In this document: piece by piece, positions 2,403 to 24,863 of the stretch
Layout: each line of letters starts with the position of its first letter
Position numbering within the stretch: position 1 is the stretch's first letter
DNA from: an archaeon
Lineage (GTDB): Archaea > Undinarchaeota > Undinarchaeia > Undinarchaeales > Naiadarchaeaceae
Length of the DNA: 26,655 nucleotides
NCBI GenBank assembly: GCA_037442905.1
Contig: JBBIPJ010000001.1
Location: forward strand, 1 to 26,655
Reading direction: 5' to 3'
The notes under the pieces: model-generated
What the model was told of the DNA's origin: nothing
Databases searched by the model: none
The model's input: only the letters and a program-made list of their open reading frames with translations
Program-made: the position numbers and the translations under genes

Positions 2403-3998
2403 TTATCCTGAATTCCCGCTTATTACTCCTCTTATAGCATCATTATATCTCAGCGCCCTTCTAATTTGCTCCCCATATTTTCCTTTCAGTTTAACACGAA
2501 CCGCGGCCTCTTTTCCAAGTTTAGTTTTAAACAGGAAATTTTTTCCTGCATAAACTTTAATATCTTTATTTGCAGCAGCTTCTCCAAAATCCAAAATATA
2601 TTCTGTTTTTGCATGCGCTAAAGTTGCAATAACTTCTTTCGGCGCTTCCCCCACTTTCATTATAACAGTTTCCTCTCCATAGGTATACATCTCATACTCA
2701 ACTCTGTTGGTTTCAAAATCTCTTACCTCAACAACAGGCCTTGCTAAATCTGATTCAAACATTCCTGCAGGAACTTTTACAGTTAATTTTGTATCGTATA
2801 CTTTTTTAATTTCCGCATCCTTGATGTAAATTACTGTGTCAACTATCAGCGGAATCTGTCCTAATTCTAAACGAATAACCATTCTCTGCAGCGCATCAAT
2901 TGGGGCAGAAGCATGAGTAACTCCAACCATTCCAACTCCTGCTAAACGCATATCTGCAAAAATTTGGAAGTCCTGCGTTTTTCTTACCTCATCATAAAAA
3001 GTGTAATCAGGGCGCACAAGCAAAAGCACATCAGCTGTTTTTGCCATCTGTCCTTCTAAAGGAGCATACTGAGTTATTTCAGGCTGTACCTGCAAATCTC
3101 TCGGGCTTTCCATAGTTTTTACAATTGATTTTTTCTCTTTTACAAAAAATTCTGCAAGCGCTGCTGCAAAACTTGATTTCCCAGCGCCTGGCGGGCCGCA
3201 AATCAGCACGCCTTCTGCTTTTTCTTTCAATCTTCTCAGTAATTTATCAGATAATTTATAAGATTCAAGTGAAACCTTTGCAATTGGACGAACTGCTGTT
3301 ACTTCCAGTCCATCAGAAAACGGCGGCTCTGCAACTGCAATCCTGAAATCTCCCATCTGCACGACTGTTGCGCCTTTCATTGAAATTTCAATTGCCTGAT
3401 TTTCCCTTCCATAATCAATTACTTCCTTTACAATTTCGCTTAACTCCTGCTCGTTCATTTTTTCTTTTCCTAATTCAACAAGCCTTACATTTCCTGGCCT
3501 GCCCTTTTTTGCAACAGGAACAGTATTTACTTTTAAATGAACGCTCATAGTTTCCTTGTCAAAAAATTCCTGTATGCGCGGCTTTTCGCGAATTTTTTTC
3601 TCAATATACCTGCAGTTAATTCCTCTTGCTAAAGCAACTTTATACTGAATGTAATCAGCAGTTAAAAGAGTTGCATTTAATTTTGCAGCTGTATTTCTGA
3701 TTAAAGCATCTATTACTCCAAATTGTGCAGCTTTTATCTCCTCAACTGTGGGAAGCCCTCCATAAAAAGTTAATTTTATCTTTCCTTCTTTCTCAACCTC
3801 TTTTAATTTTGCAATTTCATCCAATCCTTCAAATCCAATCGCTCTTCCTTTGTTTGCCTGATTCTCCAATTCAGAAAGAACAACTTCCAAAATTATAATC
3901 TCTCCGCTGAGTTCTCCAGATTCAATCAGTTTTGAAACCTTAGCTCCAATAAGGACTGAGGTATCCGGAACAGTTCTCTCATTCAATTTAGTTTCCAT
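2403..3998 (-). CDS. PIN domain + PilT-family ATPase (PINA, COG1855 type)
   Basis: N-terminal PIN (VPDTSVLI...ELENQAN...DALI...LLTAD), Walker A GPPGAGKS, KTMESPRDL, LLVRPDYTFYDEVR, DMRLAGVGMVGVTHA. Confidence 0.92.
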   Translation of the reverse strand: METKLNERTVPDTSVLIGAKVSKLIESGELSGEIIILEVVLSELENQANKGRAIGFEGLDEIAKLKEVEKEGKIKLTFYGGLPTVEEIKAAQFGVIDALIRNTAAKLNATLLTADYIQYKVALARGINCRYIEKKIREKPRIQEFFDKETMSVHLKVNTVPVAKKGRPGNVRLVELGKEKMNEQELSEIVKEVIDYGRENQAIEISMKGATVVQMGDFRIAVAEPPFSDGLEVTAVRPIAKVSLESYKLSDKLLRRLKEKAEGVLICGPPGAGKSSFAAALAEFFVKEKKSIVKTMESPRDLQVQPEITQYAPLEGQMAKTADVLLLVRPDYTFYDEVRKTQDFQIFADMRLAGVGMVGVTHASAPIDALQRMVIRLELGQIPLIVDTVIYIKDAEIKKVYDTKLTVKVPAGMFESDLARPVVEVRDFETNRVEYEMYTYGEETVIMKVGEAPKEVIATLAHAKTEYILDFGEAAANKDIKVYAGKNFLFKTKLGKEAAVRVKLKGKYGEQIRRALRYNDAIRGVISGNSG

Positions 3999-5119: not shown

Positions 5120-5646
5120 GCATAAAAGATTACATGGATCATGTGCGCATACACACAATTTCATTAGCGCTTGCAATAGTTTCAATAATTTTATATGCAG
5201 TAGTTCTTGCATTAAAGCCAGAATTATTTGCACAAAGCCTTTCAAAATGGGGGCAGTTCTTTATGTTTTTCCTGCCTTTTGTTGTTGCAATTATAGGCGT
5301 GCTTGGACTTTTGGATGCTTATCTGCCGGAAGAAGTTGTTTCAAAATATCTGGGAGATAAAAGAAAAGTTCATGGTTATGTGTTTGCACTTGCATTTGGA
5401 ACTGTTGTCTCTGCTTCGCAATATGCAATCTTCCCAACAATAAAATTTTTGCGCAAAAAAGGCGCTCGAACTGCTATTCTGGCAACTTTTATGATGAGCT
5501 GGAGCGGAATTTCTCTTCCATTAATTCCGCTTGAGCTTAAAATTTTTGGGCTGAAATTTGTTATTTTAAGAATAACAATAATCGCAATAGCTGCGCTTGT
5601 TTTTGGATTTATAACAGGCTTGCGAGAAATTCACATGGAGCACTAG
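5116..5646 (+). CDS. Predicted permease subunit (DUF318/ArsP-like), paralogous partner
   Basis: Hydrophobic; ALAFGTVVSASQYAIFP...ATFMMSWSGISLPLIPLELKIFG; ATGA overlap with the previous gene. Confidence 0.75.
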   Translation: MSIKDYMDHVRIHTISLALAIVSIILYAVVLALKPELFAQSLSKWGQFFMFFLPFVVAIIGVLGLLDAYLPEEVVSKYLGDKRKVHGYVFALAFGTVVSASQYAIFPTIKFLRKKGARTAILATFMMSWSGISLPLIPLELKIFGLKFVILRITIIAIAALVFGFITGLREIHMEH

Positions 5647-11259: not shown

Positions 11260-11420
11260 GAGAATGCTTCGTAAGTAAACTTACTCGCACACAAAGGAAT
11301 AAAATTCCTTCACAAAGGGTAGCTTCAATTGGTCAAGTACTTCACTTGATAAGCAACTACCCTTTGTGTTTGCGCACACGAAACCGGAGGTTTCGTGTTG
11401 TCTCTCACTTCGTTCGAGAT
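11260..11420. repeat. Cluster of REP-like hairpins including a 58-bp palindromic element
   Basis: Nested hairpin 11260-11289; AAGGAAT-AAA-ATTCCTT; CACAAAGGGTAG...CTACCCTTTGTG (11311-11368); ACACGAAACC-GGA-GGTTTCGTGT (11376-11398); TCTC-TCACTTCGTTC-GAGA (11401-11419). Confidence 0.8.
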
Positions 11421-12351
11421 GACAAATCCAATAACAGCATCCGCTCCGGCCAAACTCATTTTGTTTGGGGAGCACATTGTTGTCTATGGAGAGCCTGCAA
11501 TAGCAACTGCTCTTGATAAGCGAGCATATGTAACAGCAATCACTCTAGATGAGAAAAAAATTGTTGTGCGCTCAAAAAATTTGGGAAACGAGATTGAAGC
11601 CTCTTTTAAGGAGCAAACAAAAGATCCTGTAGTAAGAGCTGCTCAAGTTGCACTTGAAAAAACAAAGGCAAACAAAGGAGTTCAAGTAGAAATAAATTCC
11701 GAGATTCCTGTTTCTGTTGGTTTGGGGAGCAGTGCATCAGTTTCAGTTGCAACAGCAGCTGCTATCTTAAAACTTTTTTCTGAAAAAGAGCCATCAAAAT
11801 TTGAAATTATGGCAGTGGCCCATGAGGCTGAAAAAATTGCTCATGGAAATCCAAGCGGAATTGATACTGCAATTACAACCTTTGGCGGCACAATATTTTT
11901 TAAAAAAGGCGAGATTGAAAGCTTGGGCGCTCCCCAAATGGAAATAGTAGTTGGAAATACAAAAGTTCCAAGAAACACAAAAGAAATTGTTGAAAATGTA
12001 AAAAAAATTATTGAAGACCCGCGAGTTGCTTACAATCTTTTTACAATAAGCTCAATAGTTAGAAGAGCGCGCGAAGCCTTATTGCGCTCAAATCTTACAG
12101 AAATCGGGCATTTGATGAATAAAAACCAAGAGTTTTTAAGGGCGCTTGGAGTAAGCTCTGTAGAATTGGAGCAATTAATCCAGGTTGCACAGCAGGCAGG
12201 TGCATACGGAGCTAAATTAACAGGTGCTGGCGGTGGAGGATGCATGATAGCTTTGACAGACAGTCCTGAAAAAATTCAGGATGTTCTAAATAAAAGGGGG
12301 GCAGAGGCATTTGTTGTAAAAACAAATCAGGCTGGAGTAAGATATGAGTAA
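11419..12351 (+). CDS. mvk: Mevalonate kinase
   Basis: SAPAKLILFGEHIVVYG, IPVSVGLGSSAS, HGNPSGID, GAKLTGAGGGG. Confidence 0.95.
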   Translation: MTNPITASAPAKLILFGEHIVVYGEPAIATALDKRAYVTAITLDEKKIVVRSKNLGNEIEASFKEQTKDPVVRAAQVALEKTKANKGVQVEINSEIPVSVGLGSSASVSVATAAAILKLFSEKEPSKFEIMAVAHEAEKIAHGNPSGIDTAITTFGGTIFFKKGEIESLGAPQMEIVVGNTKVPRNTKEIVENVKKIIEDPRVAYNLFTISSIVRRAREALLRSNLTEIGHLMNKNQEFLRALGVSSVELEQLIQVAQQAGAYGAKLTGAGGGGCMIALTDSPEKIQDVLNKRGAEAFVVKTNQAGVRYE

Positions 12352-13132
12352 AAAAAGAAAACCTTTAATCTTTGTAAAATTGGGCGGAGCTGCAATTACA
12401 TTTAAGGATTTTCCTAAAAAAGCAAATGATTCTGTAATAGATAGTTGCGCTCAGCAGATTGCAAACCTAAAAGATGAATATAGATTTTTAATCGGCCATG
12501 GAGGAGGCGGATTTGCTCATCCAATTGCTGCAAAATACAAAATTCATGAGGGTTTAAAAATTTGTGGCGCAGAAGGAATGGCTGAAACACACCGCGCTGT
12601 TCGCGAGCTGAATAGCATTGTTGTAAATTATTTAATGGATCGCGGAATTCCAGCATTTTCTACTTATGCGTCCAGCTGTGTTCTTTCAAATGGTGGAAAA
12701 ATTAAGGAATTTTACACAAAGCCAATAAAAGAATTGCTTGCAAATGAAGTAGTTCCAGTTATTGGAGGGGATGTTGTTCCTGATATTAAAAAAGGATGTT
12801 CAATTGCTTCCACAGAAATGATTTTTTCCACTCTAATTAATGAAATGAAGCCAAAAAGAATTATTGTTGGAACAGATGTTGACGGAGTTTACATCACAGA
12901 AGGCGGCGATGAAAAGGTTGTGCCTGAAATAAATAGAAAAAATTTTAAGAAAGTCTATGAATCAATCGGGAGCTCCAAATATACAGATGTTACAGGAGGA
13001 ATGAAACACAAAGTTGAGGAACTCTATGCAATCTCTAGAAAAGGAATCCAAATCCAAATAATAAATCTTCTAAAGGAGGAGAATTTAAGCCGCGCAATTC
13101 AAGGAGAGCGCGTTGGAACTTTAGTAAAGTAA
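12344..13132 (+). CDS. ipk: Isopentenyl phosphate kinase
   Basis: Amino-acid-kinase fold: VKLGGAAITFK, GHGGGGFAH (signature His), TDVDGVY, DVTGGMKHK. Confidence 0.93.
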   Translation: MSKKRKPLIFVKLGGAAITFKDFPKKANDSVIDSCAQQIANLKDEYRFLIGHGGGGFAHPIAAKYKIHEGLKICGAEGMAETHRAVRELNSIVVNYLMDRGIPAFSTYASSCVLSNGGKIKEFYTKPIKELLANEVVPVIGGDVVPDIKKGCSIASTEMIFSTLINEMKPKRIIVGTDVDGVYITEGGDEKVVPEINRKNFKKVYESIGSSKYTDVTGGMKHKVEELYAISRKGIQIQIINLLKEENLSRAIQGERVGTLVK

Positions 13133-14191
13133 ATGACTCCGGGAACATCTGACAGGAAATTGGAACACATAAAAATTGTTAGCAGGAAAAATGTTCAAGC
13201 TAAGCAAAAAACAAACTGGCTTGAGTATGTTGATTTAGTCCATAATTCAGTTCCGGAATTAAACAAAAAGGATATTAATTTGTCTGTAAAATTTTTGGGG
13301 CACAAATTGGATTACCCAATTTTAATAAGTGGAATGACAGGCGGGCATTCTGTTGCGCAAAAAATTAACGAAACGCTTGCGCGCGCAGCAGAAAAGGCAA
13401 ATGTTGCAATGGGGGTTGGCTCGCAAAGAGCAATGCTGGAAAATCCCAAGCTTGCTTACACCTATCAAGTCCGCGAATATGCACCATCAATTTTTCTTAT
13501 TGGCAATTTGGGGATTCCTCAGCTTGAAAAATACAAAACAAAAGGCGTTTTGAAAGCTGCAAAATCAATTGGGGCGAATGCTTTTGCAGTTCACTTAAAC
13601 AATTTGCAGGAAGTTGTGCAAAGAGAAGGGGATGTTAATGCAAAAAACTACTTTAAACACTTGAAAAAAATTTGTTCATCTGTTAAAATCCCGATTATCG
13701 CAAAGGAAACAGGAGCAGGAATTTCAAGAGAAGCTGCAAAATTATTAATTAAGGCAGGAGTCTCTGCAATAGATGTTGGCGGTGCAGGAGGAACCTCCTG
13801 GGGCGCTGTTGAAATTCTTCGCGGCAGAGCAAGCAAATCAAGTTCTATTGCCTTCTGGGATTGGGGAATCCCGACAGCAGCAAGTATTTTGGAAGTAAGA
13901 AGTGTTTCTGAAAAAATCCCGTTAATTGCTTCCGGTGGTTTAAGAAACGGATTAGAAGCAGCAAAATGCATAGCTCTTGGCGCTGATTTAGTTGGAATGG
14001 CATATCCATTTTTCAAAGCTGCTGAAAAAGGAACCTCTGAGGTAATAAAAACAATAGAAGAAATCGGAGAGGGAATTAGAAATGCTATGTTTTTAGTCAG
14101 CGCACGAAACATAAACGAGTTAAAAAATTCAAAATTTATAATCCAAGATAATTTATTGGATTGGGCTTTGTGGAGGGGATTGGGAAAGTAA
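13133..14191 (+). CDS. fni: Type 2 isopentenyl-diphosphate isomerase
   Basis: RKLEHI, ISGMTGG, GVGSQRA, HLNNLQEVVQREGD, KETGAG, GGAGGTSW, ASGGLRNG. Confidence 0.96.
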   Translation: MTPGTSDRKLEHIKIVSRKNVQAKQKTNWLEYVDLVHNSVPELNKKDINLSVKFLGHKLDYPILISGMTGGHSVAQKINETLARAAEKANVAMGVGSQRAMLENPKLAYTYQVREYAPSIFLIGNLGIPQLEKYKTKGVLKAAKSIGANAFAVHLNNLQEVVQREGDVNAKNYFKHLKKICSSVKIPIIAKETGAGISREAAKLLIKAGVSAIDVGGAGGTSWGAVEILRGRASKSSSIAFWDWGIPTAASILEVRSVSEKIPLIASGGLRNGLEAAKCIALGADLVGMAYPFFKAAEKGTSEVIKTIEEIGEGIRNAMFLVSARNINELKNSKFIIQDNLLDWALWRGLGK

Positions 14192-14194
14192 TTT

Positions 14195-15061
14195 ATGGGT
14201 ATAAAAAAAATTTCTTTATCTGAAAAATTGAAAATTTTAATTGAAATAAGCCGCCCTGTAAACATTTTAATGGTTATTTTTGGAATTATTATTACACTTG
14301 TTGCCGGGCTTGAAAGTATCCCACCTTTAGGGCTTTTGCTTCCAGCGGTTATCGCTGCTGCGTCAATCGCAGCTGCCGGAAATGCTATAAACGATTACTA
14401 TGACATTCAAATCGATCGAATTAATCGCCCTGAGCGCCCATTGCCTTCTGGAAAAATAACACAGCGCGGAATCTGGGGATATGCTATTTTTTTGTTCGCA
14501 ACTGGAATAATTGTTTCTATATTGCTGACACTTGCAAACTTTGTTCTTGCTTTTGTAAATTCTGTTCTTCTAGGAATTTATGCCTATAGATTAAAGCGAA
14601 GCGGATTTTTTGGAGATATTGTAATAAGTTATTTAGTGGCATCTGTCTTTATTTTCGCGGCGCTTGCAATCCATTCTCTGAAAATAGGATTTATTCTTGC
14701 AGTAGCAGCATTTTTCACAAATTCTGCGCGCGAAGTTCTGAAAGATTTGGAAGATATAAAAGGGGATAAACTCTTTGGAGCAAGAACTTTGCCACTTTTA
14801 ATTGGAAGAAAAAAATCAATCATAATTGTCAGCTCTTTTTTAATAGTTTCAATTTTAGTTAGCCCACTTCCATTTACGCTTGGAATTTTAAAATGGCCAT
14901 ATCTTGCTGTTGCAGCTCTCGCTGATTTTATTTTTCTTGACATAATTTATCTGCTCAATAAAAAAACTGACAAAAAAACTATTGCGCTGAATCAGAGGCT
15001 GATAAAATTTGCTGCCCTGACCGGCTTGCTCGCCTTTTTGGCTGGTGTGCTTCCTGTCTGA
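14195..15061 (+). CDS. Digeranylgeranylglyceryl phosphate synthase (UbiA family)
   Basis: NAINDYYDIQIDRINRPERPLPSG, AREVLKDLEDIKGD, multi-pass membrane protein, lipid-cluster context. Confidence 0.88.
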   Translation: MGIKKISLSEKLKILIEISRPVNILMVIFGIIITLVAGLESIPPLGLLLPAVIAAASIAAAGNAINDYYDIQIDRINRPERPLPSGKITQRGIWGYAIFLFATGIIVSILLTLANFVLAFVNSVLLGIYAYRLKRSGFFGDIVISYLVASVFIFAALAIHSLKIGFILAVAAFFTNSAREVLKDLEDIKGDKLFGARTLPLLIGRKKSIIIVSSFLIVSILVSPLPFTLGILKWPYLAVAALADFIFLDIIYLLNKKTDKKTIALNQRLIKFAALTGLLAFLAGVLPV

Positions 15062-15070
15062 GCATAAAAC

Positions 15071-15078
15071 TTTATAAG
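15071..15078 (+). promoter_or_regulatory. TATA box upstream of the duplicated egsA start
   Basis: AAAAC-TTTATAAG just after the DGGGP synthase stop. Confidence 0.5.
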
Positions 15079-15105
15079 AGGCTTGCACAGATACTTTCTG
15101 CTTTC

Positions 15106-15331
15106 AATAGGCCTAGAAAAATGACTGCAAGAAAAATTGAATCCCCACAGCCGACGACATGAACGTTTATCCGACTTTGAATCGGCTGGCGCTTCGGACT
15201 ACATCACAAAGGGTAGGTTTATTAGCTAACCACTTTGATAGCTATCCAGCCTACCCTTTGTGTAGGGGCATTCTCGCTGCGCTCGAAGCCCCTAAATAGG
15301 CATAGAAAAATGACTGCAAGAAAAATTGAAT
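15106..15331 (+). repeat. 37-bp direct repeat (15106-15142 and 15295-15331) flanking a 152-bp hairpin cassette
   Basis: AATAGGC(C/A)TAGAAAAATGACTGCAAGAAAAATTGAAT, 36/37 identical. It contains the egsA start and first 7 codons; the first copy gives the mini-ORF MTARKIESPQPTT* (15121-15162). Confidence 0.92.
15143..15294. mobile_element. Putative non-autonomous hairpin cassette (REP/MITE-like)
   Basis: CAGCCGA/TCGGCTG stem (15147-15188), 58-bp palindrome (15205-15262), GTAGGGGC...GCCCCTA hairpin (15262-15294), flanked by the 37-bp duplication. Confidence 0.55.
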
Positions 15332-16356
15332 TTCCAAGAATAGTAATTGTTGGCAGCGGAGCCACTGAGCAGATTGTTGAAGTAGTTGATGAAATAAGCC
15401 CTGGAAAAAATGCCTTAATTACCTCAGGCCCGCAAACCATGCAAATAGCTGGAAATAAAGTAAAGAAATTGCTTGAAAAATCTGGGTACAAAGTTTTCCA
15501 CCAGCGTTCCGAGGTTGCGGATGAAAAAACAATTTCTGCAGCCCAGAATCAGATAAAGCAGCACAAAATTAACATTGCTCTTGGAGTTGGGGGTGGAACA
15601 AGTATTGATGTTGCAAAGCTCTCCTCGTCTAGAGAAAATGTTCCATTCATTTCTGTTCCAACAGCTGCTTCGCATGATGGAATTTCCAGCCCAATTGCAT
15701 CAATAAAGCAGGATGGAAGTTTTAAAAGCTATCCTGCAACTGCGCCAATTGCAATTGTTGCAGATGTCTCAATAATTAAAACAGCTCCAAGAAAAATGTT
15801 AGCAGCTGGATGTGGAGATTTGCTTGCAAATTATACTGCAGTTGAGGATTGGAGACTTGCACACAAGTTAAGAGGGGAATATTTCGGAGAATATGCAGCC
15901 GCTCTTTCAATTATGAGCGCAAAAATGATTCTGGATAATTATGAAATTTTAAAAAATCCAAATGAGGAATCCATTAAATTAGTTGTTGAAGCATTGATTA
16001 GTTCAGGAGCAGCTATGTGCATTACAGGAAACTCTCGCCCGTGCAGCGGGGCAGAGCATATGTTTTCTCATGCTCTTGATAAATTGACTCCGAATCATGG
16101 ATTGCATGGAGAGCAATGTGGAATTGGAACAGTTATGATGGCATATTTGCATAAATTAGACTGGGAAAAATTCCGCGATGCTTTAAAAGCTGTTGGCGCC
16201 CCAACTAATGCTTCTGAATTAGGAATTGATTCAGAATTAATAATAAAAGCACTTACAATAGCGCACACAATCAGGGATAGGTATACAATTTTAGGAACAA
16301 ACGGATTGAGCGAAGAGGCAGCAAGAGATTTGGCAAGGAAAACAGGGGTTATATAA
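15310..16356 (+). CDS. egsA: Glycerol-1-phosphate dehydrogenase [NAD(P)+]
   Basis: GVGGGTSIDVAK, SVPTAASHDGISSP, AGCGDLLAN, SRPCSGAEHMFSHALD, LHGEQCG. Confidence 0.96.
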   Translation: MTARKIEFPRIVIVGSGATEQIVEVVDEISPGKNALITSGPQTMQIAGNKVKKLLEKSGYKVFHQRSEVADEKTISAAQNQIKQHKINIALGVGGGTSIDVAKLSSSRENVPFISVPTAASHDGISSPIASIKQDGSFKSYPATAPIAIVADVSIIKTAPRKMLAAGCGDLLANYTAVEDWRLAHKLRGEYFGEYAAALSIMSAKMILDNYEILKNPNEESIKLVVEALISSGAAMCITGNSRPCSGAEHMFSHALDKLTPNHGLHGEQCGIGTVMMAYLHKLDWEKFRDALKAVGAPTNASELGIDSELIIKALTIAHTIRDRYTILGTNGLSEEAARDLARKTGVI

Positions 16357-16424
16357 AATCTAGTTTTTGCGATGCTTGAAAACTATTTAAATGCCTTCTT
16401 ATAGAATAGCTTCTTGGGAGTGGC

Positions 16425-17159
16425 ATGGGAAAAGTTAAAAATAATCTCTATGAAAAACTGAAGCATGAGAAGCTTCACTTCAGTTTATTTGATCCTGAAA
16501 AATTAACTCCTGAAAAAGCAGCTGATTTTGCGGAAAAAGTTACAGAGTTCGGAAGCGATGCTATTATGATAGGAGGCTCAACAGCGCAAAATGTTGATTT
16601 AGTCACAAAAGCAATCCGCGAATCAACTAAACTTCCAATAATTTTGTTTCCGAATTCAGCTAACGGTTTAAGCAAATATGCTGATGCTGTATTTTTTATG
16701 TCTCTCTTAAATTCTAACAAGCGAGAATTTTTAGTTGGGGAACAGGTAAAAGGAGCTCCAATAATTTTTGAGCATGGAATTGAGCCAATTCCGATGGGAT
16801 ACATAGTGATTAATACTGGAGAGCCAACAGCAGTTGAAAAAATTGCACAAATACAAAGATTGACGAAAGAGGAAATTGTAAATTACGCGCTTGCAGCAGA
16901 ATATTTTGGAATGGATTTGGTTTATTTGGAAGCAGGCTCAGGAGCTACCCGCTCAGTTTCTGAGGATATTATTGAAGCGGTTAAACAGAAATTAAAAATA
17001 CCTTTAATTGTGGGCGGCGGAATTAACGGACCTGTAACTGCTCTTCGAAAGTTAGATGCAGGCGCAGACATAATTGTAACAGGAACTGTTATTGAGCGCG
17101 CATATGGGAAAGTTGCTGAAATTATTGATGCGGTAAAGAAATATAAACCCACTAAATAA
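16425..17159 (+). CDS. Geranylgeranylglyceryl phosphate synthase (GGGPS/PcrB family)
   Basis: HFSLFDPEK, DAIMIGGS, LPIILFP, FFMSLLNS, VYLEAGSGA, LIVGGGI. Confidence 0.94.
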   Translation: MGKVKNNLYEKLKHEKLHFSLFDPEKLTPEKAADFAEKVTEFGSDAIMIGGSTAQNVDLVTKAIRESTKLPIILFPNSANGLSKYADAVFFMSLLNSNKREFLVGEQVKGAPIIFEHGIEPIPMGYIVINTGEPTAVEKIAQIQRLTKEEIVNYALAAEYFGMDLVYLEAGSGATRSVSEDIIEAVKQKLKIPLIVGGGINGPVTALRKLDAGADIIVTGTVIERAYGKVAEIIDAVKKYKPTK

Positions 17160-17172
17160 GTTTCCTGGTTCT

Positions 17173-17856
17173 ATGAAACTTGGCGCACTTTTTTCAGGCG
17201 GAAAGGACAGCACATTTGCTCTATACTGGGCGATAAAAAACAATCACTCGATAGAATGTTTGATTTCTCTCAAAGCAGCGCGCACAGATTCTTATATGTT
17301 TCAGGTTGCGAATATTGAACTAACAAAATTAAGCGCTCAGGCTTTAGGATTGCCAATTATTTTTGAAAAAACCTCCGGAATTAAAGAAAAAGAATTGGAT
17401 GATTTAAAACGCGCAATTTTGCGCGCAAAAAAAGAATTTGGAATCGAAGGAGTAACTGCAGGCGCGCTTGCTTCTAATTATCAAAAGGAAAGGGTTGAAA
17501 AAATTTGCAAAGAACTTGGGCTGAAAGTTTTCGCACCCTATTGGCAATACAACCAGGAAAAATATCTGCGCGAAATTTTGGAAGCAGGATTTGAAATAAT
17601 TTTTACAAGAGTTGCTGCACTTGGGTTTACTGAAAAATGGCTTGGAAGAAAATTGGATGAAAAAGCAATTGAGGATTTAAAAAAATTAAATCAAAAATAT
17701 CACGTTCACTTAGGAGGAGAGGGCGGCGAATTTGAGACTTTAGTTCTGGAGGGGCCGATTTTTAAAAAGCGGATAGAAATTTTAGAGGCTGAAAAAGTTT
17801 TTCATGCGAATGAGGGGGAGCTTTTAATTAAAAGTGCTGTGCTTGTTGAAAAATAA
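17173..17856 (+). CDS. dph6: Diphthine--ammonia ligase
   Basis: LFSGGKDS PP-loop, SYMFQ, GALASNYQKERVE, HLGGEGGEFET. Confidence 0.9.
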   Translation: MKLGALFSGGKDSTFALYWAIKNNHSIECLISLKAARTDSYMFQVANIELTKLSAQALGLPIIFEKTSGIKEKELDDLKRAILRAKKEFGIEGVTAGALASNYQKERVEKICKELGLKVFAPYWQYNQEKYLREILEAGFEIIFTRVAALGFTEKWLGRKLDEKAIEDLKKLNQKYHVHLGGEGGEFETLVLEGPIFKKRIEILEAEKVFHANEGELLIKSAVLVEK

Positions 17857-18075
17857 TTACTCTTGCTTTTCAAAGCTAATACTTTTTACTCTCCCATTTT
17901 CTAATTCAAATTTTGCTAAAATTCTGTCGGTTAAGTTTTGTTTAGGGCTAAAAGTTTTTGAACATTTTCCACAATCCAAATCTGACTCAAGTTCGACAGC
18001 ATACCAACTTGATTCAGCAAAATAATTTTTACAATAAGGGCATTTTACAATTGCAATATCAAGATTGGCTTCCAT
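17857..18075 (-). CDS. Small zinc-ribbon protein
   Basis: 72 aa with CPYC and CGKC; its start abuts the stop of the upstream ORF. Confidence 0.7.
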   Translation of the reverse strand: MEANLDIAIVKCPYCKNYFAESSWYAVELESDLDCGKCSKTFSPKQNLTDRILAKFELENGRVKSISFEKQE

Positions 18076-18578
18076 TATTCTAATATTTCTCTTCTTCTTT
18101 CAGCATATGCTACGCTTAATTCCCTATAAAGAGCATCGGCTCTTCTTGCGATGCTCAAGAATTTATCTTTTAGTACCTCGTTTTGCATCATTTCAGCTAT
18201 TATATAATGTGTGCATCTGCATTCATCATGTATTTCTAATAATCTCTCAACCAACAGCATAAAAAAGTTTAAAACTCTGATTATTGCTTTGCTGTCCTCT
18301 GGCATTTCAAATCTCCTTAGCGGATCTTTTAGCTCATTTTTCCAATTTGCCATAAAAGTAAGATAGAGATCGTATATTCTTGCTTCTAATTCCATTACTC
18401 TTCTGATTTCTCTAGCTCTCTCTTCAGCAGGCTGTTCCCTCAAAAATTCGCGAATCTCAAACGGAATATACCACAAGCTAGTTTTGTGCACACTCAATTC
18501 CACTTCCAAGGGACTAGTGCCCTGCTTTAATATATCCAAATCAGCCCATAATTCTTCTAATTTCTTTTTCTTTGGCAT
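18075..18578 (-). CDS. Hypothetical helical protein
   Basis: 167 aa ORF with protein-like composition, coupled to the zinc-ribbon gene; no motif recognised. Confidence 0.65.
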   Translation of the reverse strand: MPKKKKLEELWADLDILKQGTSPLEVELSVHKTSLWYIPFEIREFLREQPAEERAREIRRVMELEARIYDLYLTFMANWKNELKDPLRRFEMPEDSKAIIRVLNFFMLLVERLLEIHDECRCTHYIIAEMMQNEVLKDKFLSIARRADALYRELSVAYAERRREILE

Positions 18579-18636
18579 ATACTGTAATTTGTTGTTTAGT
18601 AAATATATATGTCTGTGGTTTTAAGAAAAAATAATT

Positions 18637-18656
18637 AAATAGTAGATATACTATTT
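18637..18656. promoter_or_regulatory. Inverted repeat, possible operator between divergent orphan genes
   Basis: AAATAGTA-GATA-TACTATTT, ending 2 nt before ATG 18659. Confidence 0.35.
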
Positions 18657-18658
18657 TT

Positions 18659-19162
18659 ATGCAAATGCCTATCAAAATTAAATATAATAAGAGCAATTTA
18701 AAAACAATTTTGCATTCAAATAACCGTGTAACAGAACTGCCAGCAAACCCAGATTCTTTCTTAAAAGAGTTTTTAGAAAAAGTTAGCAGAGGCGAGTATG
18801 TTGAAGCAGTGAACATGTTTTTTGAACTCAGGCTTGCGCAATTCGCAAAAATTTTTAAAGAGCTGAACACTAAAAAACCTGAAATTGGCAGAATTTATCA
18901 GGAAATGGCCATTATACGCGGAACAATGCTTATTGACAGGTTAAAGTCACTGATGACTAAAAACTGGGATGCTGAATCTACTGCAAATTACAGAAATTTT
19001 ATCCGTGCCTATAATGAATTTAAGGAAGCTGAAAATAAAGAGGACCGCAGGGCGGCAATTCATGGCTTTATCAGCCCAGTCTCATGGTTTATTGGGCGAA
19101 TTATAAAAGAGAAAAAGCAAATTCCAGAACACGAATTTACAATTGAGATAGAAGAAGACTGA
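18659..19162 (+). CDS. Hypothetical protein
   Basis: 167 aa helical ORF; no motif recognised. Confidence 0.65.
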   Translation: MQMPIKIKYNKSNLKTILHSNNRVTELPANPDSFLKEFLEKVSRGEYVEAVNMFFELRLAQFAKIFKELNTKKPEIGRIYQEMAIIRGTMLIDRLKSLMTKNWDAESTANYRNFIRAYNEFKEAENKEDRRAAIHGFISPVSWFIGRIIKEKKQIPEHEFTIEIEED

Positions 19163-19169
19163 GGTTTGC

Positions 19170-19463
19170 ATGGGAATCGGAGAAAAAGAAAGGCAGTTAA
19201 GGGAAATGAAAGATGCTGTATTTGATAGTTGTTCTAGTTGTAGAAATTTTAATAATGCTGAAAAAACACGGAAAATATTAAATCGCATAAAAGATTTTTA
19301 CGATGACTATCGCAGGGCAGGTATATTTCCAGAAACAAAAAAGTCTTGGGAAAAGAGGTATGATGAACTAATAAACCTTTGTATTGAGTGCACTAAAAAA
19401 ATACATAATCGCGAGTACTGCAATACAAGCGAGAACGCGATTAAATTAAGAGCAAATATCTAA
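19170..19463 (+). CDS. Hypothetical protein with two CxxC motifs
   Basis: 97 aa with CSSC and CIEC; GAGGT upstream of the start. Confidence 0.6.
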   Translation: MGIGEKERQLREMKDAVFDSCSSCRNFNNAEKTRKILNRIKDFYDDYRRAGIFPETKKSWEKRYDELINLCIECTKKIHNREYCNTSENAIKLRANI

Positions 19464-20143
19464 AACCCAATTCTTGTCCCCTTAAACTCCTGTCTGTTTA
19501 AAAACTTCTCAATATTCCCTAAATTCTTCCCGTTCACAACTGCAACTCTAATTCTTTCATTAGCTATCATTCCAGCACTCACATAATCCATAATTGCCGG
19601 CTGGTTTGCTTTATGCGTTTTATCTGCATATTTTCGCAAATCATCAAAACTCATCTCTTTTATTGGCTTTGCATTTTTGCTTTTTTTAGGATCTCTATCA
19701 TAAACATAATCAACATCTGTTCCCTTTATCACATAATCCGCATTCCAGACTTTTGCAATCTCAACTGCAACAGCATCTGTTCTCTGTTTTGGGCGGAATC
19801 CGCCGCAAACAATAATTTTTTGCGGATATTTAAGGGTTAAATCTAAAAATTCAACTTCTGAGCGAGGAATCACAGGGCATGCGGAATTTTCAAGGGCTGC
19901 AATTAAAAGCGCAGCATTCAATCTTGAGGCATAAATCCCCAACAAATCCAGAAAATCTTCGTCTTTTGTAATTTTTCTTCCGATTTTATCAATCTCTCTT
20001 GAGAGCGCCCCCCCGCCAATTACAACTGCAATCTCGTGTTTTTTTGCCCATTCAATTAGATGAACAGCTAATTTTTTTACAAAATTCAAATCAACCTGTT
20101 TGGGCATAAATATTGAGCCGCCTATTTTCAAAACGATCTTCAT
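19460..20143 (-). CDS. pyrH: Uridylate kinase
   Basis: VLKIGGS, VVIGGGALSR, GGFRPKQRTDAVA, TDVDYVYDRDPKK. The alternative start is 20149. Confidence 0.94.
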   Translation of the reverse strand: MKIVLKIGGSIFMPKQVDLNFVKKLAVHLIEWAKKHEIAVVIGGGALSREIDKIGRKITKDEDFLDLLGIYASRLNAALLIAALENSACPVIPRSEVEFLDLTLKYPQKIIVCGGFRPKQRTDAVAVEIAKVWNADYVIKGTDVDYVYDRDPKKSKNAKPIKEMSFDDLRKYADKTHKANQPAIMDYVSAGMIANERIRVAVVNGKNLGNIEKFLNRQEFKGTRIGF

Positions 20144-20155
20144 GAGCATTAGCGA

Positions 20156-20194
20156 ATGAAGATGCGAGGAAGTTTACTTCCGAAGCATTTTCAT
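20156..20194. repeat. Nested REP-like hairpin
   Basis: ATGAAGATGC-GA-GGAAGT-TT-ACTTCC-GAA-GCATTTTCAT; 27/30 identical to the reverse complement of 11260-11289. Confidence 0.75.
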
Positions 20195-20227
20195 GGCAAT
20201 TAGATAAGAACAAAACTCTTTTAATAG

Positions 20228-20494
20228 TTATCTTCGCGTAAATCTTCTTATTGGTCTTCTCTTTACCTCAGGTGCAGCCTTGTAAATAGGCTTGTGAGTG
20301 GGGCGTACAGCCCTAACTAAATATCCTGCAACTTTATTTCTGATTTTTTTGCTTGGAGAAGCAAGCACCCCAGAATTAATTAGCTCCTGCAAAACTTTTT
20401 TGTTATGCTCAAAGTCCTCTTTAAGGCGCTCTCTGTATTTTTGCAAGAGCTCTTCCCCTGTCCTTTTTATGAATCCTGGTTTAATTCTTCCCAT
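20228..20494 (-). CDS. rps17e: 30S ribosomal protein S17e
   Basis: MGRIKPGFIKR...DFEHNKKVL...SKKIRNKVAGY. Confidence 0.95.
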   Translation of the reverse strand: MGRIKPGFIKRTGEELLQKYRERLKEDFEHNKKVLQELINSGVLASPSKKIRNKVAGYLVRAVRPTHKPIYKAAPEVKRRPIRRFTRR

Positions 20495-20638
20495 ATTAGT
20501 GGCGGTTTAATTGAACCAATCGGTTTATAAGGATTTGGAGCTACATATAACTCTTCAAGGCTGGCAAAAACAAAAGTAGAAATTAAAGGGGTTCTAGGAT
20601 AAAATTCAAGGATGAACCCCCTGATAAGTGCCAGCTGG

Positions 20639-20696
20639 CACAATGTGAAGGTTTGTTAGCTAACCAATTGGATAGCAATGCAGCCTTCACATTGTG
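20639..20696. repeat. 58-bp palindromic element, third copy
   Basis: CACAATGTGAAGG...CCTTCACATTGTG; 47/58 identical to 15205-15262. Confidence 0.85.
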
Positions 20697-20726
20697 ATTA
20701 TACCTCGCTTAAGCGGAGGTCAGCTG

Positions 20727-21773
20727 ATGAAAGCCCATCTAGCTATTTGTCCCATAGGCGTTTTTGTCTGTGATGACACTGGAAAATTAATAGACAAGGA
20801 ACTTTTTGAAAGGAATAGTGAGCATGCTGCGCGCAGGATTTTGCAATTGCGAGATGGAAAAATCATTCCTGAATTAAAAGTTTTATATGAACGGATTAGA
20901 AAAAAATATGATGAAATTACCCTAGAGCATGAAAATAATTTTGGTTTAAGTATTGAAACTTCAATTCCAAATTTATGCGGAAAAGTTTTGCGCGCGCAAA
21001 TTAAGGATTTAGCTGCAGAATTTGGATTTCATCCGATTGAACATTTTGTTTATAATTTGGGAATTGCTTTAACAGAAGAAACCCTGCAGGTTGAACTTTC
21101 AAAGCCTGACAAAAGAATTATTCAAGTGATTGGTGCGCTTGAGGAGCTGGATAAGAATACAAATGTTCTTTCAGAGAGGTTAAGAGAGTGGTATCTAATT
21201 TTTCACCCAGAATTAATTAGTCAGATTGAGAAACATGAAACTTTTGCGCGCCTGATTGCAAAGGGAAAAGTGGATAAAAAAGATTCAATCGGCGCAAGTT
21301 TTAATGAAACCGATTTAAAAACCTTAAGATTTTTTGCAGAAAACATTTCTGACTCTTTTTCATTGCGCAGTGTTTTGGAAAATTATCTGGATAATTTAAT
21401 GAAAGAGCATTTTCCAAATTTGCGCACAGTTGCAACTCCGCTGATAGGAGCAAAATTAATTGCAATTGCAGGCGATTCAACAAGATTGGCAAGAATGCCC
21501 TCTTCTACAATTCAAGTTTTAGGAGCTGAAAAATCTTTGTTCAGGCATTTGAAAACAGGCTCAAAGCCGCCGAAGTATGGAGTTATATTAAAACACACAT
21601 TTTTGCAGAGCGCGCCCCAAAGGTTGCGCGGAAAAGTTGCGCGCGCGCTTGCGGCAAAAATTTCGCTTGCAATTAAAACAGATTTGTATTCAAAAGAATT
21701 TGTTGGGGATAAATTGAGAAAGGATTTAGAAAGTAAAATTGCAAAAATAAAGGGTGGTGGGAAGAAAAAATGA
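20727..21773 (+). CDS. nop5: C/D box RNP protein Nop5 (Nop56/58)
   Basis: LSERLREWY, PNLRTV...IGAKLIAIAG, STIQVLGAEKSLFRHL...PPKYGVI, RGKVARALAAKISLA; GGAGGT RBS at 20715-20720. Confidence 0.95.
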   Translation: MKAHLAICPIGVFVCDDTGKLIDKELFERNSEHAARRILQLRDGKIIPELKVLYERIRKKYDEITLEHENNFGLSIETSIPNLCGKVLRAQIKDLAAEFGFHPIEHFVYNLGIALTEETLQVELSKPDKRIIQVIGALEELDKNTNVLSERLREWYLIFHPELISQIEKHETFARLIAKGKVDKKDSIGASFNETDLKTLRFFAENISDSFSLRSVLENYLDNLMKEHFPNLRTVATPLIGAKLIAIAGDSTRLARMPSSTIQVLGAEKSLFRHLKTGSKPPKYGVILKHTFLQSAPQRLRGKVARALAAKISLAIKTDLYSKEFVGDKLRKDLESKIAKIKGGGKKK

Positions 21774-22324
21774 AAATGAAGAAGATTTTAAAAGTAAAAA
21801 GTAAAAAAGATATCGAAAAGCAAATCAAAGAATTAAGAAATCGAGGTAAAAAACTTGCTGAAATTTCAAAAATAACTGGAAAAAGTATTCATTATGTTTA
21901 TTCGAGACTAAATCCCAAATATAGACTGGGGCGATTAGAAATACATTACATTAATGAAAAGGTTATCCCCACACTTAAAAGAATGGGGTTTAAAGATATT
22001 TATATCCCAGATGATCCAAGACAAAATAGAAAAAAGAAGTTTTGGGCTGATATTGTTGCAAAAAAAGGTAAGACATTTCATATTTTTGAAGTCAAACATA
22101 GGCCACAGAGATCTTTGTTTTGTTTTGCGGTAGGGGAAATTATCCTAAATAGATGCGTGAATAATAAGATAAATGGTAAGAAAAAATACCATATTGTTCT
22201 ACCCCATCCCACCTCTTATATTGATGTTTTCACCAAAAAAGTAGAATGGGCGAGTATGAAAAATTTCAAAGAAGAAGCAAAATTCCTAAAAAAGAATTAT
22301 GGCGTAGATGTTATTTTCATTTGA
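21770..22324 (+). CDS. HTH + PD-(D/E)xK nuclease-like protein inserted between nop5 and flpA
   Basis: N-terminal HTH (GKKLAEISKITGKSIHYVYSRL), then E...LKRMGF...ADIVAKKGKTFHIFEVK. The alternative start is 21776. Confidence 0.7.
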   Translation: MKMKKILKVKSKKDIEKQIKELRNRGKKLAEISKITGKSIHYVYSRLNPKYRLGRLEIHYINEKVIPTLKRMGFKDIYIPDDPRQNRKKKFWADIVAKKGKTFHIFEVKHRPQRSLFCFAVGEIILNRCVNNKINGKKKYHIVLPHPTSYIDVFTKKVEWASMKNFKEEAKFLKKNYGVDVIFI

Positions 22325-23002: not shown

Positions 23003-23121
23003 GTGAGTGGTGGGTGGTGAGTAAATAGTGGATGGTAGCGGGTGGCGAGTAGCGGGACACGAGACAACGGGCATGAGACAAGTGCCGAGTCCCGAGTCCC
23101 TAATCCCGTATCTCGATACTG
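23003..23121. repeat. Degenerate 7-bp periodic array (17 in-phase units)
   Basis: gtgagtg gtgggtg gtgagta ... gcgggac acgagac ... gagtccc gagtccc taatccc gtatctc gatactg; G-rich half followed by a C-rich half. Confidence 0.8.
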
Positions 23122-24766: not shown

Positions 24767-24838
24767 TTAAGTAGCGAGTATCGAGATTCGAGAAAAGAGT
24801 CCCGCATCCCCAGTCCCTAATCCCCAATCCCCCAACCA
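24767..24838. repeat. Degenerate 7-bp periodic array in the thermosome leader
   Basis: gcgagta tcgagat tcgagaa aa gagtccc gcatccc cagtccc taatccc caatccc. Confidence 0.8.
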
Positions 24839-24863
24839 TATTCACAAATTTCAAGGAGATAAA

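Follow-up and report, generated by a model that had tools for sequence, protein, structure and literature searches.

The MITEs of prokaryotes, archaea included (miniature inverted-repeat transposable elements), of which the Correia elements of Neisseria are an example, are non-coding and lineage-specific, carry terminal inverted repeats, are flanked by a target duplication and lie in intergenic DNA near promoters or gene starts. Rickettsia palindromic elements (RPE) of 100-150 bp are repeats of a reduced-genome symbiont that are able to sit in frame in a protein gene. The REPINs, which are mobilised by RAYT tyrosine transposases of bacteria, are short non-coding palindromes, extragenic and clustered, present in tens of copies and differing between relatives; compensatory changes preserve their hairpins, in which the motifs at the ends are conserved and the interior is free (PMC3116915). 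High MITE densities are known for some DPANN genomes (PMC11602168). Here we describe a 58-bp palindrome in a Naiadarchaeum (Undinarchaeota, DPANN) that has the MITE features listed above, resembles REPINs in copy number, distribution and hairpin evolution, and can, like an RPE, be read as part of a protein. It is present three times in the window, that is, the whole 26,655-nucleotide stretch analysed (contig JBBIPJ010000001.1), which is contig 1 of the source metagenome-assembled genome (G000; 783 kb, 138 contigs, 37% G+C, 78.6% complete). The palindrome is most probably a miniature, non-coding and non-autonomous piece of mobile DNA with the anatomy of a MITE and a hairpin that evolves like that of a REPIN. 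Nevertheless, it differs from REPINs in its archaeal host and in arms that form one 13-bp stem instead of two REP palindromes, from RPE in that a single coding insertion was seen and no sequence relation exists, and from typical MITEs in a length that is at their lower size limit.

The three copies in the window, all of which start with CACAA, are:

11311..11368, + strand: copy 1, subtype I, arm CACAAAGGGTAG, 58 bp with perfect 12-bp terminal inverted repeats
15205..15262, + strand: copy 2, subtype II, arm CACAAAGGGTAGG, 58 bp with perfect 13-bp terminal inverted repeats
20639..20696, + strand: copy 3, subtype II, arm variant CACAATGTGAAGG, 58 bp with perfect 13-bp terminal inverted repeats

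These coordinates, the 58-bp lengths and the terminal inverted repeats of 12-13 bp beginning with CACAA had been proposed in an earlier note made from the window alone, and all were re-read exactly. Its counts for copies 2 and 3 were also confirmed: they are identical at 47/58 positions, and six of the 11 differences form three compensated pairs (6/53, 8/51 and 10/49). Copy 1 had been described as the arms of copy 2 around a different interior, which holds as well, since the two have a 12-nt arm in common and are identical at 34/58 positions, nearly all of them in the arms, the interior of copy 1 being unrelated to that of copy 2 or very diverged. With a probability of 4^-12 per position, about 0.002 perfect pairs of 12-nt arms would be expected in 26.6 kb at a given fixed spacing, and three such palindromes within this length cannot be explained by chance. 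As single-stranded DNA the three copies fold with -15 to -16 kcal/mol (z = -4.9 to -6.9) on either strand.

A scan of the whole genome for further copies, as the earlier note had suggested, shows that the palindrome is the visible part of a large family. To collect the family, the genome was first scanned for short palindromes that are perfect, after which it was searched with the arms and with a covariance model. The family comprises about 40 full-length copies in G000, at least 10 copies truncated at contig ends and several that are interrupted by another copy. The arms are perfect over 12-14 bp, with at least 14 different perfectly paired arm sequences in G000, and the interiors fall into four subtypes:

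Subtype I (with copy 1), 58 bp: ten full-length copies that are nearly identical and whose orientation was established, plus one that was added later (C23:2559)
Subtype II (with copies 2 and 3), 58-59 bp: eighteen copies, which are more diverged
Subtype III, 56-57 bp: related to subtype I
Subtype IV, 69 bp

An identical twin of copy 3 lies in the same leader context at C49:59-116 (contigs of G000 are designated C, the window being C1). Many contigs begin or stop inside a copy (C14:1-39, C40:1-39, C41:1-55, C49:1-44 and 5562-5599, C71:1-44, C99:1-51, C113:1-72 and C130:1-48), so that the copy counts are lower bounds, and repeats of this family are a main cause of the fragmented G000 assembly. 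The covariance model matches 5/17 Undinarchaeota genomes, with about 40 loci in G000, about 4 in its congener G001 (a sister species, 98% complete) and about 9, 2 and 2 in three genomes of another family of the same order; in 24 genomes from other archaeal phyla it finds no match. The carriers are G000, G001, G005, G008 and G011. Viral contigs scanned with both arms gave 0 matches. A metagenome scan with a 14-mer arm returned at least 120 stretches, of which 80 loci were examined; these are chance occurrences, none being accepted by the covariance model. In one of the more distant carriers two copies lie in opposite orientation 12.7 kb apart (G011:C154:7156-7213 and 19954-20011; L034 and L039), and the sequences that flank them are reverse-complementary as well, which suggests a large inverted duplication.

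Comparison of filled and empty sites shows that the element inserts precisely as a unit. Copy 1 interrupts a repeat module that is found uninterrupted elsewhere in the genome: the unfilled paralogues on C42, C28 and C8 read ttccTTtgcgcac, the filled site in the window ttccTT[58 bp]TTtgcgcac, with a 2-bp target duplication TT at 11309-11310 and 11369-11370. Likewise, cctaCT[58 bp]CTcgcgg and cctaCTcgcgg on C47 and C75 differ by an exact insertion of 58 bp plus CT. Copy 2 lies between two T's of its host module (acaT[58 bp]Tagg, as against acaTTggg or accTTagg on C80, C10 and C78), which amounts to a duplication of 0-1 bp, while the flanks of copy 3 show no recognisable one. Elements are also nested: one of subtype III sits within one of subtype II with a CA duplication (+57 bp +CA), and one of subtype II within another of the same subtype with one extra base. 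Over the five empty/filled comparisons the duplication is 2 bp in three and 1 bp and 0-1 bp in the other two. Among 28 distinct contexts a 2-bp flanking duplication occurs in 10, including every context of subtype I, compared with about 2.7 in offset controls. The earlier statement that individual copies lack a target-site duplication thus fails for copy 1. Both orientations and all gene arrangements are represented among the copies, spacers between convergent genes included, and the preferred landing place is the foot of other hairpins (six sites inspected); inspection of oriented flanks revealed no conserved target motif.

Comparison between species also points to mobility. G000 is close to Candidatus Naiadarchaeum limnaeum, to judge from an egsA that is 88% identical. 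When G000 and G001 are compared, as had also been proposed, none of five orthologous sites is filled in common and all 5/5 are filled in one species only. In the window the three copies stand upstream of genes for a GHMP kinase (mvk-type), an iron-containing alcohol dehydrogenase of the glycerol-1-phosphate-dehydrogenase type (egsA) and Nop5. The orthologous leaders in G001 have the same TATA box and a start codon within 25-40 nt (for nop5, a TATA box, about 25 nt and then the ATG), and the 150-200 bp of hairpin modules present at the three window loci are absent. In the reverse direction, two G001 copies face empty sites in G000.

These sites bear on whether the hairpin could be a recurrent structured 5'-leader RNA, that is, a cis-regulatory element selected at each gene for a host function, as the earlier note had put forward next to a mobile hairpin. 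It had placed all three window copies between a TATA-like box and a start codon, which is borne out, the TATA box being conserved in the sister species, and it had noted a pairing that is indeed maintained. However, the same leaders do without the hairpin in the sister species, and other copies lie in convergent-gene spacers, in either orientation, nested in one another and, in one case, within a coding region. At the level of the stem, no G-U pair occurs in the outer part, and a strand-specific test for wobble pairs counts 8 G-T against 15 A-C mismatches besides one invariant T-G and favours neither strand. The comparison with Rfam gave no family either: nothing matches the window at gathering score, and at E <= 10 the mvk and egsA leaders yield only chance-level hits (E >= 0.47, far below gathering). 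A leader RNA is therefore very unlikely. Of the two possibilities of the earlier note the mobile one is upheld, by empty sites, duplications, nesting and a lineage-restricted copy number, and the palindrome adds a new case to a known type of selfish DNA and is no novel regulatory RNA.

The coding copy, of subtype I, lies at C3:11403-11460, in frame, inside the following gene:

G000 C3:11262-11666, - strand: gene for a nascent-polypeptide-associated complex (NAC) protein with NAC and UBA domains, the subtype I copy falling in the interdomain linker

The DNA reads GGTTC[58 bp]TCGGG, and since 58 + 2 = 60 nt, 20 codons have been added. The protein is 134 aa long in G000, as against 112-114 in G001; three of the four other relatives have one of 115-123. 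The alignment gap falls in the linker. The reading frames of the element are no more open than expected by chance.

The second line of evidence comes from the stem, for which statistics were taken from 24 copies of three subtypes. Positions 1-5, 7, 9 and 11-13 (CACAA.G.G.AGG) are nearly constant, while positions 6, 8 and 10 are free yet matched, with 2-4 alleles each. Watson-Crick pairs make up 99% of the stem cells, and the free positions agree between the arms in 285 of 288 cells. Nine of the 12 stem pairs have changed on both sides and no sequence shows a one-sided change, the commonest change being a swap of A-T to T-A; none of 500 shuffles reaches the observed pairing values, and slid controls are also far off, as was likewise seen with subtype II by itself. 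By contrast, the inner stem of subtype II decays without compensation. Since the arm variants track interior sublineages, the events behind the compensated changes are limited in number (by allele count, at least about 15), and several copies have inherited each of them. A constraint on arm pairing is strongly supported. Selection on both structure and length had been claimed, and it is the structure for which this holds; lengths of 56-59 bp in three subtypes, 69 bp in the fourth and 57-74 bp in relatives, 56-74 bp overall, point to a weak length constraint. Because the free positions almost never differ between the arms, pairing within one strand would appear to be needed for the element to multiply, as has been proposed for REPINs.

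This argument would lose its force if the element were an ordinary cut-and-paste MITE, whose ends are read as duplex DNA by a DDE transposase and whose arms are symmetrical because they are young or homogenised, with no folded intermediate. Terminal inverted repeats together with a 2-bp duplication do resemble the outcome of a staggered double-strand cut, and no tested copy is common to both Naiadarchaeum species, so that all copies may be young. However, ends that are read independently should often mismatch at positions 6, 8 and 10, which is not what the near-complete agreement of the arms and the diversity of arm haplotypes (at least 14) show. In addition, conventional MITE ends do not vary in compensated pairs, and the duplication here is 0-2 bp, with no fixed TA and of a size that varies; rve is missing from the carriers and DDE_Tnp_1 and DDE_3 from G000. 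An ordinary MITE is thus an unlikely explanation.

The position of the copies in leaders is explained by the modules into which they are inserted. The hosts of the three window copies, and a direct repeat around one of them, are:

11290..11403, + strand: the two-hairpin module B that copy 1 interrupts (AAGGAA..TTCCTT followed by GCGCAC ACGAAACC..GGTTTCGT GTTGTCT)
15148..15294, - strand: host of copy 2, a reversed and 5'-truncated L module, which together with copy 2 forms a 147-bp insert at the egsA start region
20554..20726, + strand: host of copy 3, a forward L module ending in GGAGGT-CAGCTG directly before the nop5 ATG (20727)
15106-15147 and 15295-15336, + strand: a 42-bp direct repeat, 93% identical, bracketing the 147-bp insert

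Uninterrupted B modules occur at C42:5667-5687, C28:7250-7297 and C8:7055-7108, and another B at C74:~3345-3400. Since the TATA-to-ATG position is inherited from these host modules, and since non-coding DNA is scarce (the coding share of the genome is about 86% by a crude count of open reading frames, ORFs), the leader position of the window copies is a by-product and does not itself speak for a leader function of the hairpin.

Could the hairpin then lack any mobility of its own and be a passenger of larger L and B cassettes that are copied or recombined? Several copies do have extended flanks in common: C1:20625-20715 with C49, C1:11296-11403 with C73, where the composite of B and copy 1 recurs with 99% identity over 108 bp, and copy 2 with C67. 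On the other hand, filled and unfilled versions of one host module differ by exactly the element, which moreover lies at different positions in different L copies and also in unique sequence such as the NAC gene. That the hairpin only travels as a passenger is consequently the least credible of the explanations considered here, and extremely improbable.

Our preferred explanation, a mobile hairpin, can be spelled out as follows. The element inserts as one exact unit, with a target duplication that is usually 2 bp and sometimes 0-1 bp; most sites are intergenic, and very often they lie within another hairpin repeat, at the base of its stem. Species of one genus differ by its gain and loss, and some copies also increase passively, through copying of the larger repeat module in which they lie. 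Movement would depend on an enzyme acting in trans that reads the folded hairpin, be it in single-stranded or in cruciform DNA, and that needs both the conserved CACAA-G-G-AGG and a stem that is intact, whichever bases stand at positions 6, 8 and 10. If only copies whose arms still pair can multiply, double-mutant arms would found new sublineages. The enzyme itself may sit in unassembled DNA, in a virus or plasmid or in the symbiont's host, or it may be a protein that is not recognised as such.

Several observations weigh against this explanation, most of them concerning the enzyme. Y1_Tnp (PF01797), rve (PF00665) and Resolvase (PF00239) were not found in the five carrier genomes, the 98%-complete G001 included; a search for DDE_Tnp_1 and DDE_3 (PF01609 and PF13358), made in G000 alone, which is about 78% complete, was negative; and RVT_1 (PF00078) was not found in four of the five carriers, G000 and G001 among them, the one match being in G011. 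Nor do the carrier genomes hold a long element with the same termini, the arms occurring only in close pairs 50-74 bp apart, and hence the parent insertion sequence expected for a typical MITE is not found. A target duplication that is not uniform (2, 1 or 0 bp) is unusual for one dedicated transposase. Because several copies share their flanks, there are considerably fewer independent insertions than copies, and read-level signs of excision or insertion polymorphism were not obtained, contigs breaking at the repeats.

The known systems do not supply the enzyme. HUH-type single-strand transposition makes no target duplication. In contrast to REPINs, a short target duplication is present here, and no RAYT or Y1 gene occurs in any carrier genome. 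An origin from IS200/IS605 (PATE-like) was rejected, the element having perfect inverted termini and a duplication and the TnpB-like gene of G000 not being co-distributed with it. This TnpB/Cas12f-like gene was also dismissed as a partner in its own right, because it is present in G000, absent from G001 and G008 and present in non-carriers. It encodes a protein of 539 aa (C53:1060-2679, minus strand; PF07282 and a weak PF01385) and lies directly downstream of a gene with a Cas4/RecB-like cysteine cluster at the encoded C-terminus; by its gene content the locus may be a small type V CRISPR-Cas or a TnpB locus. A helix-turn-helix/nuclease-like ORF of the window (21770-22324), which lies between nop5 and flpA, was discarded as a partner as well: it is single-copy, has no Pfam match and is found in G000 alone. 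The CACAATG terminus is similar to the heptamer of Transib elements and recombination signal sequences, but the duplication length does not fit. An RNA-mediated retro-element was rejected in view of the lack of RVT_1 in G000 and G001 and of G-T pairs in the outer stem. A survey reports no eukaryote-like transposons in Undinarchaeota (PMC13343696). A variable 0-2-bp duplication combined with a preference for hairpin feet fits no transposase family that we can name.

The host modules are repeats in their own right. B is a dispersed repeat with covarying stems and is found inserted inside L modules (C74 and C46). L is a structured repeat of about 120 nt with a consensus of AAGGCTGGCA..AAAAGYAGAAAT, a covarying hairpin TTCGC..GCGAATG and then ATAAGCGCCAGCCGATTATAC .. 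GGAGGTCGGCTG; both the hairpin P2 and the helix CAGCnn/nnGCTG covary. There are about 30 L copies in G000, for example at C5:14049-14169, C45:3608-3728, C40:2588-2708, C74:3468-3588 and C110:2586-2713, and 8 in G001, while BLAST finds none in 19 other genomes. At 10 of 34 L-type 3' ends, that of nop5 included, an ATG follows within 0-2 nt and opens an ORF of at least 81 aa. Ten L-module loci gave no Rfam match at E <= 1. L can be read in two ways, as a mobile leader cassette or as a new structured RNA. The 42-bp repeat at egsA belongs to the insertion of the L module and not to the 58-bp element. Its two units each hold the leader and first codons of egsA; in the sister species there is a single copy and no insert. 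The upstream copy would give an upstream ORF of 13 codons.

Other repeats are found at the same gene starts and elsewhere. A small hairpin module ATGCTTCGKAAGTAAACTTMCTCGCA at 11260-11289 and 20163-20192 (inverted, 90%) lies directly at the start codon in both places, after the old mvk ATG in the first and upstream of the ATG of the minus-strand ORF 19460-20149 in the second. The mvk insert of about 150 bp is, as a whole, bracketed by gagaATG ... gagATG. Further palindromic families of G000 include one of 50-60 bp with about 15 copies (GGTTATGGGTTTTGAGTTC..) and one of 66 bp (CATTTAAT..ATTAAATG), and there are fold-back arrays of 7-nt units of the GCTTGTA/GCTAGTA and CGGGATA types. Example loci of these further repeats are C2:5149-5201, C9:685-739, C59:3308-3369, C6:10569-10634, C26:7165-7230 and C2:12194-12257, and further palindromic repeats lie in the window at 23081-23112 and 24777-24843. 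Copies of subtype I are often inserted in GCTTGAS-type arrays.

A more far-reaching idea is that the 58-bp element, B and L form layers of hairpin elements which are all recognised by structure, are moved by an enzyme that is novel to transposition or supplied from outside, and together remodel gene starts. We regard it as possible but doubtful. If it were true, about ten genes would receive a Shine-Dalgarno sequence from L modules, which would adjoin or provide their start codons, and the 58-bp element would be able to extend a protein by 20 codons.

Undinarchaeota have been described as streamlined, and their founding description makes no mention of repeats or transposons (PMC7414124). The 0.8-Mb genome considered here nevertheless holds dozens of copies of at least one active hairpin element and several further repeat families. 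For genome annotation, the lesson is that covariation alone is no ground for naming such palindromes RNA genes or riboswitches. For transposon biology, five carrier genomes without a recognisable transposase raise the question of the mobilising enzyme. In the organism itself, the repeats give essential genes (mvk, egsA and nop5) structured leaders of about 200 nt in place of short ones. The interest of the element lies both in its mobilisation and in the remodelling of gene starts in a minimal genome.

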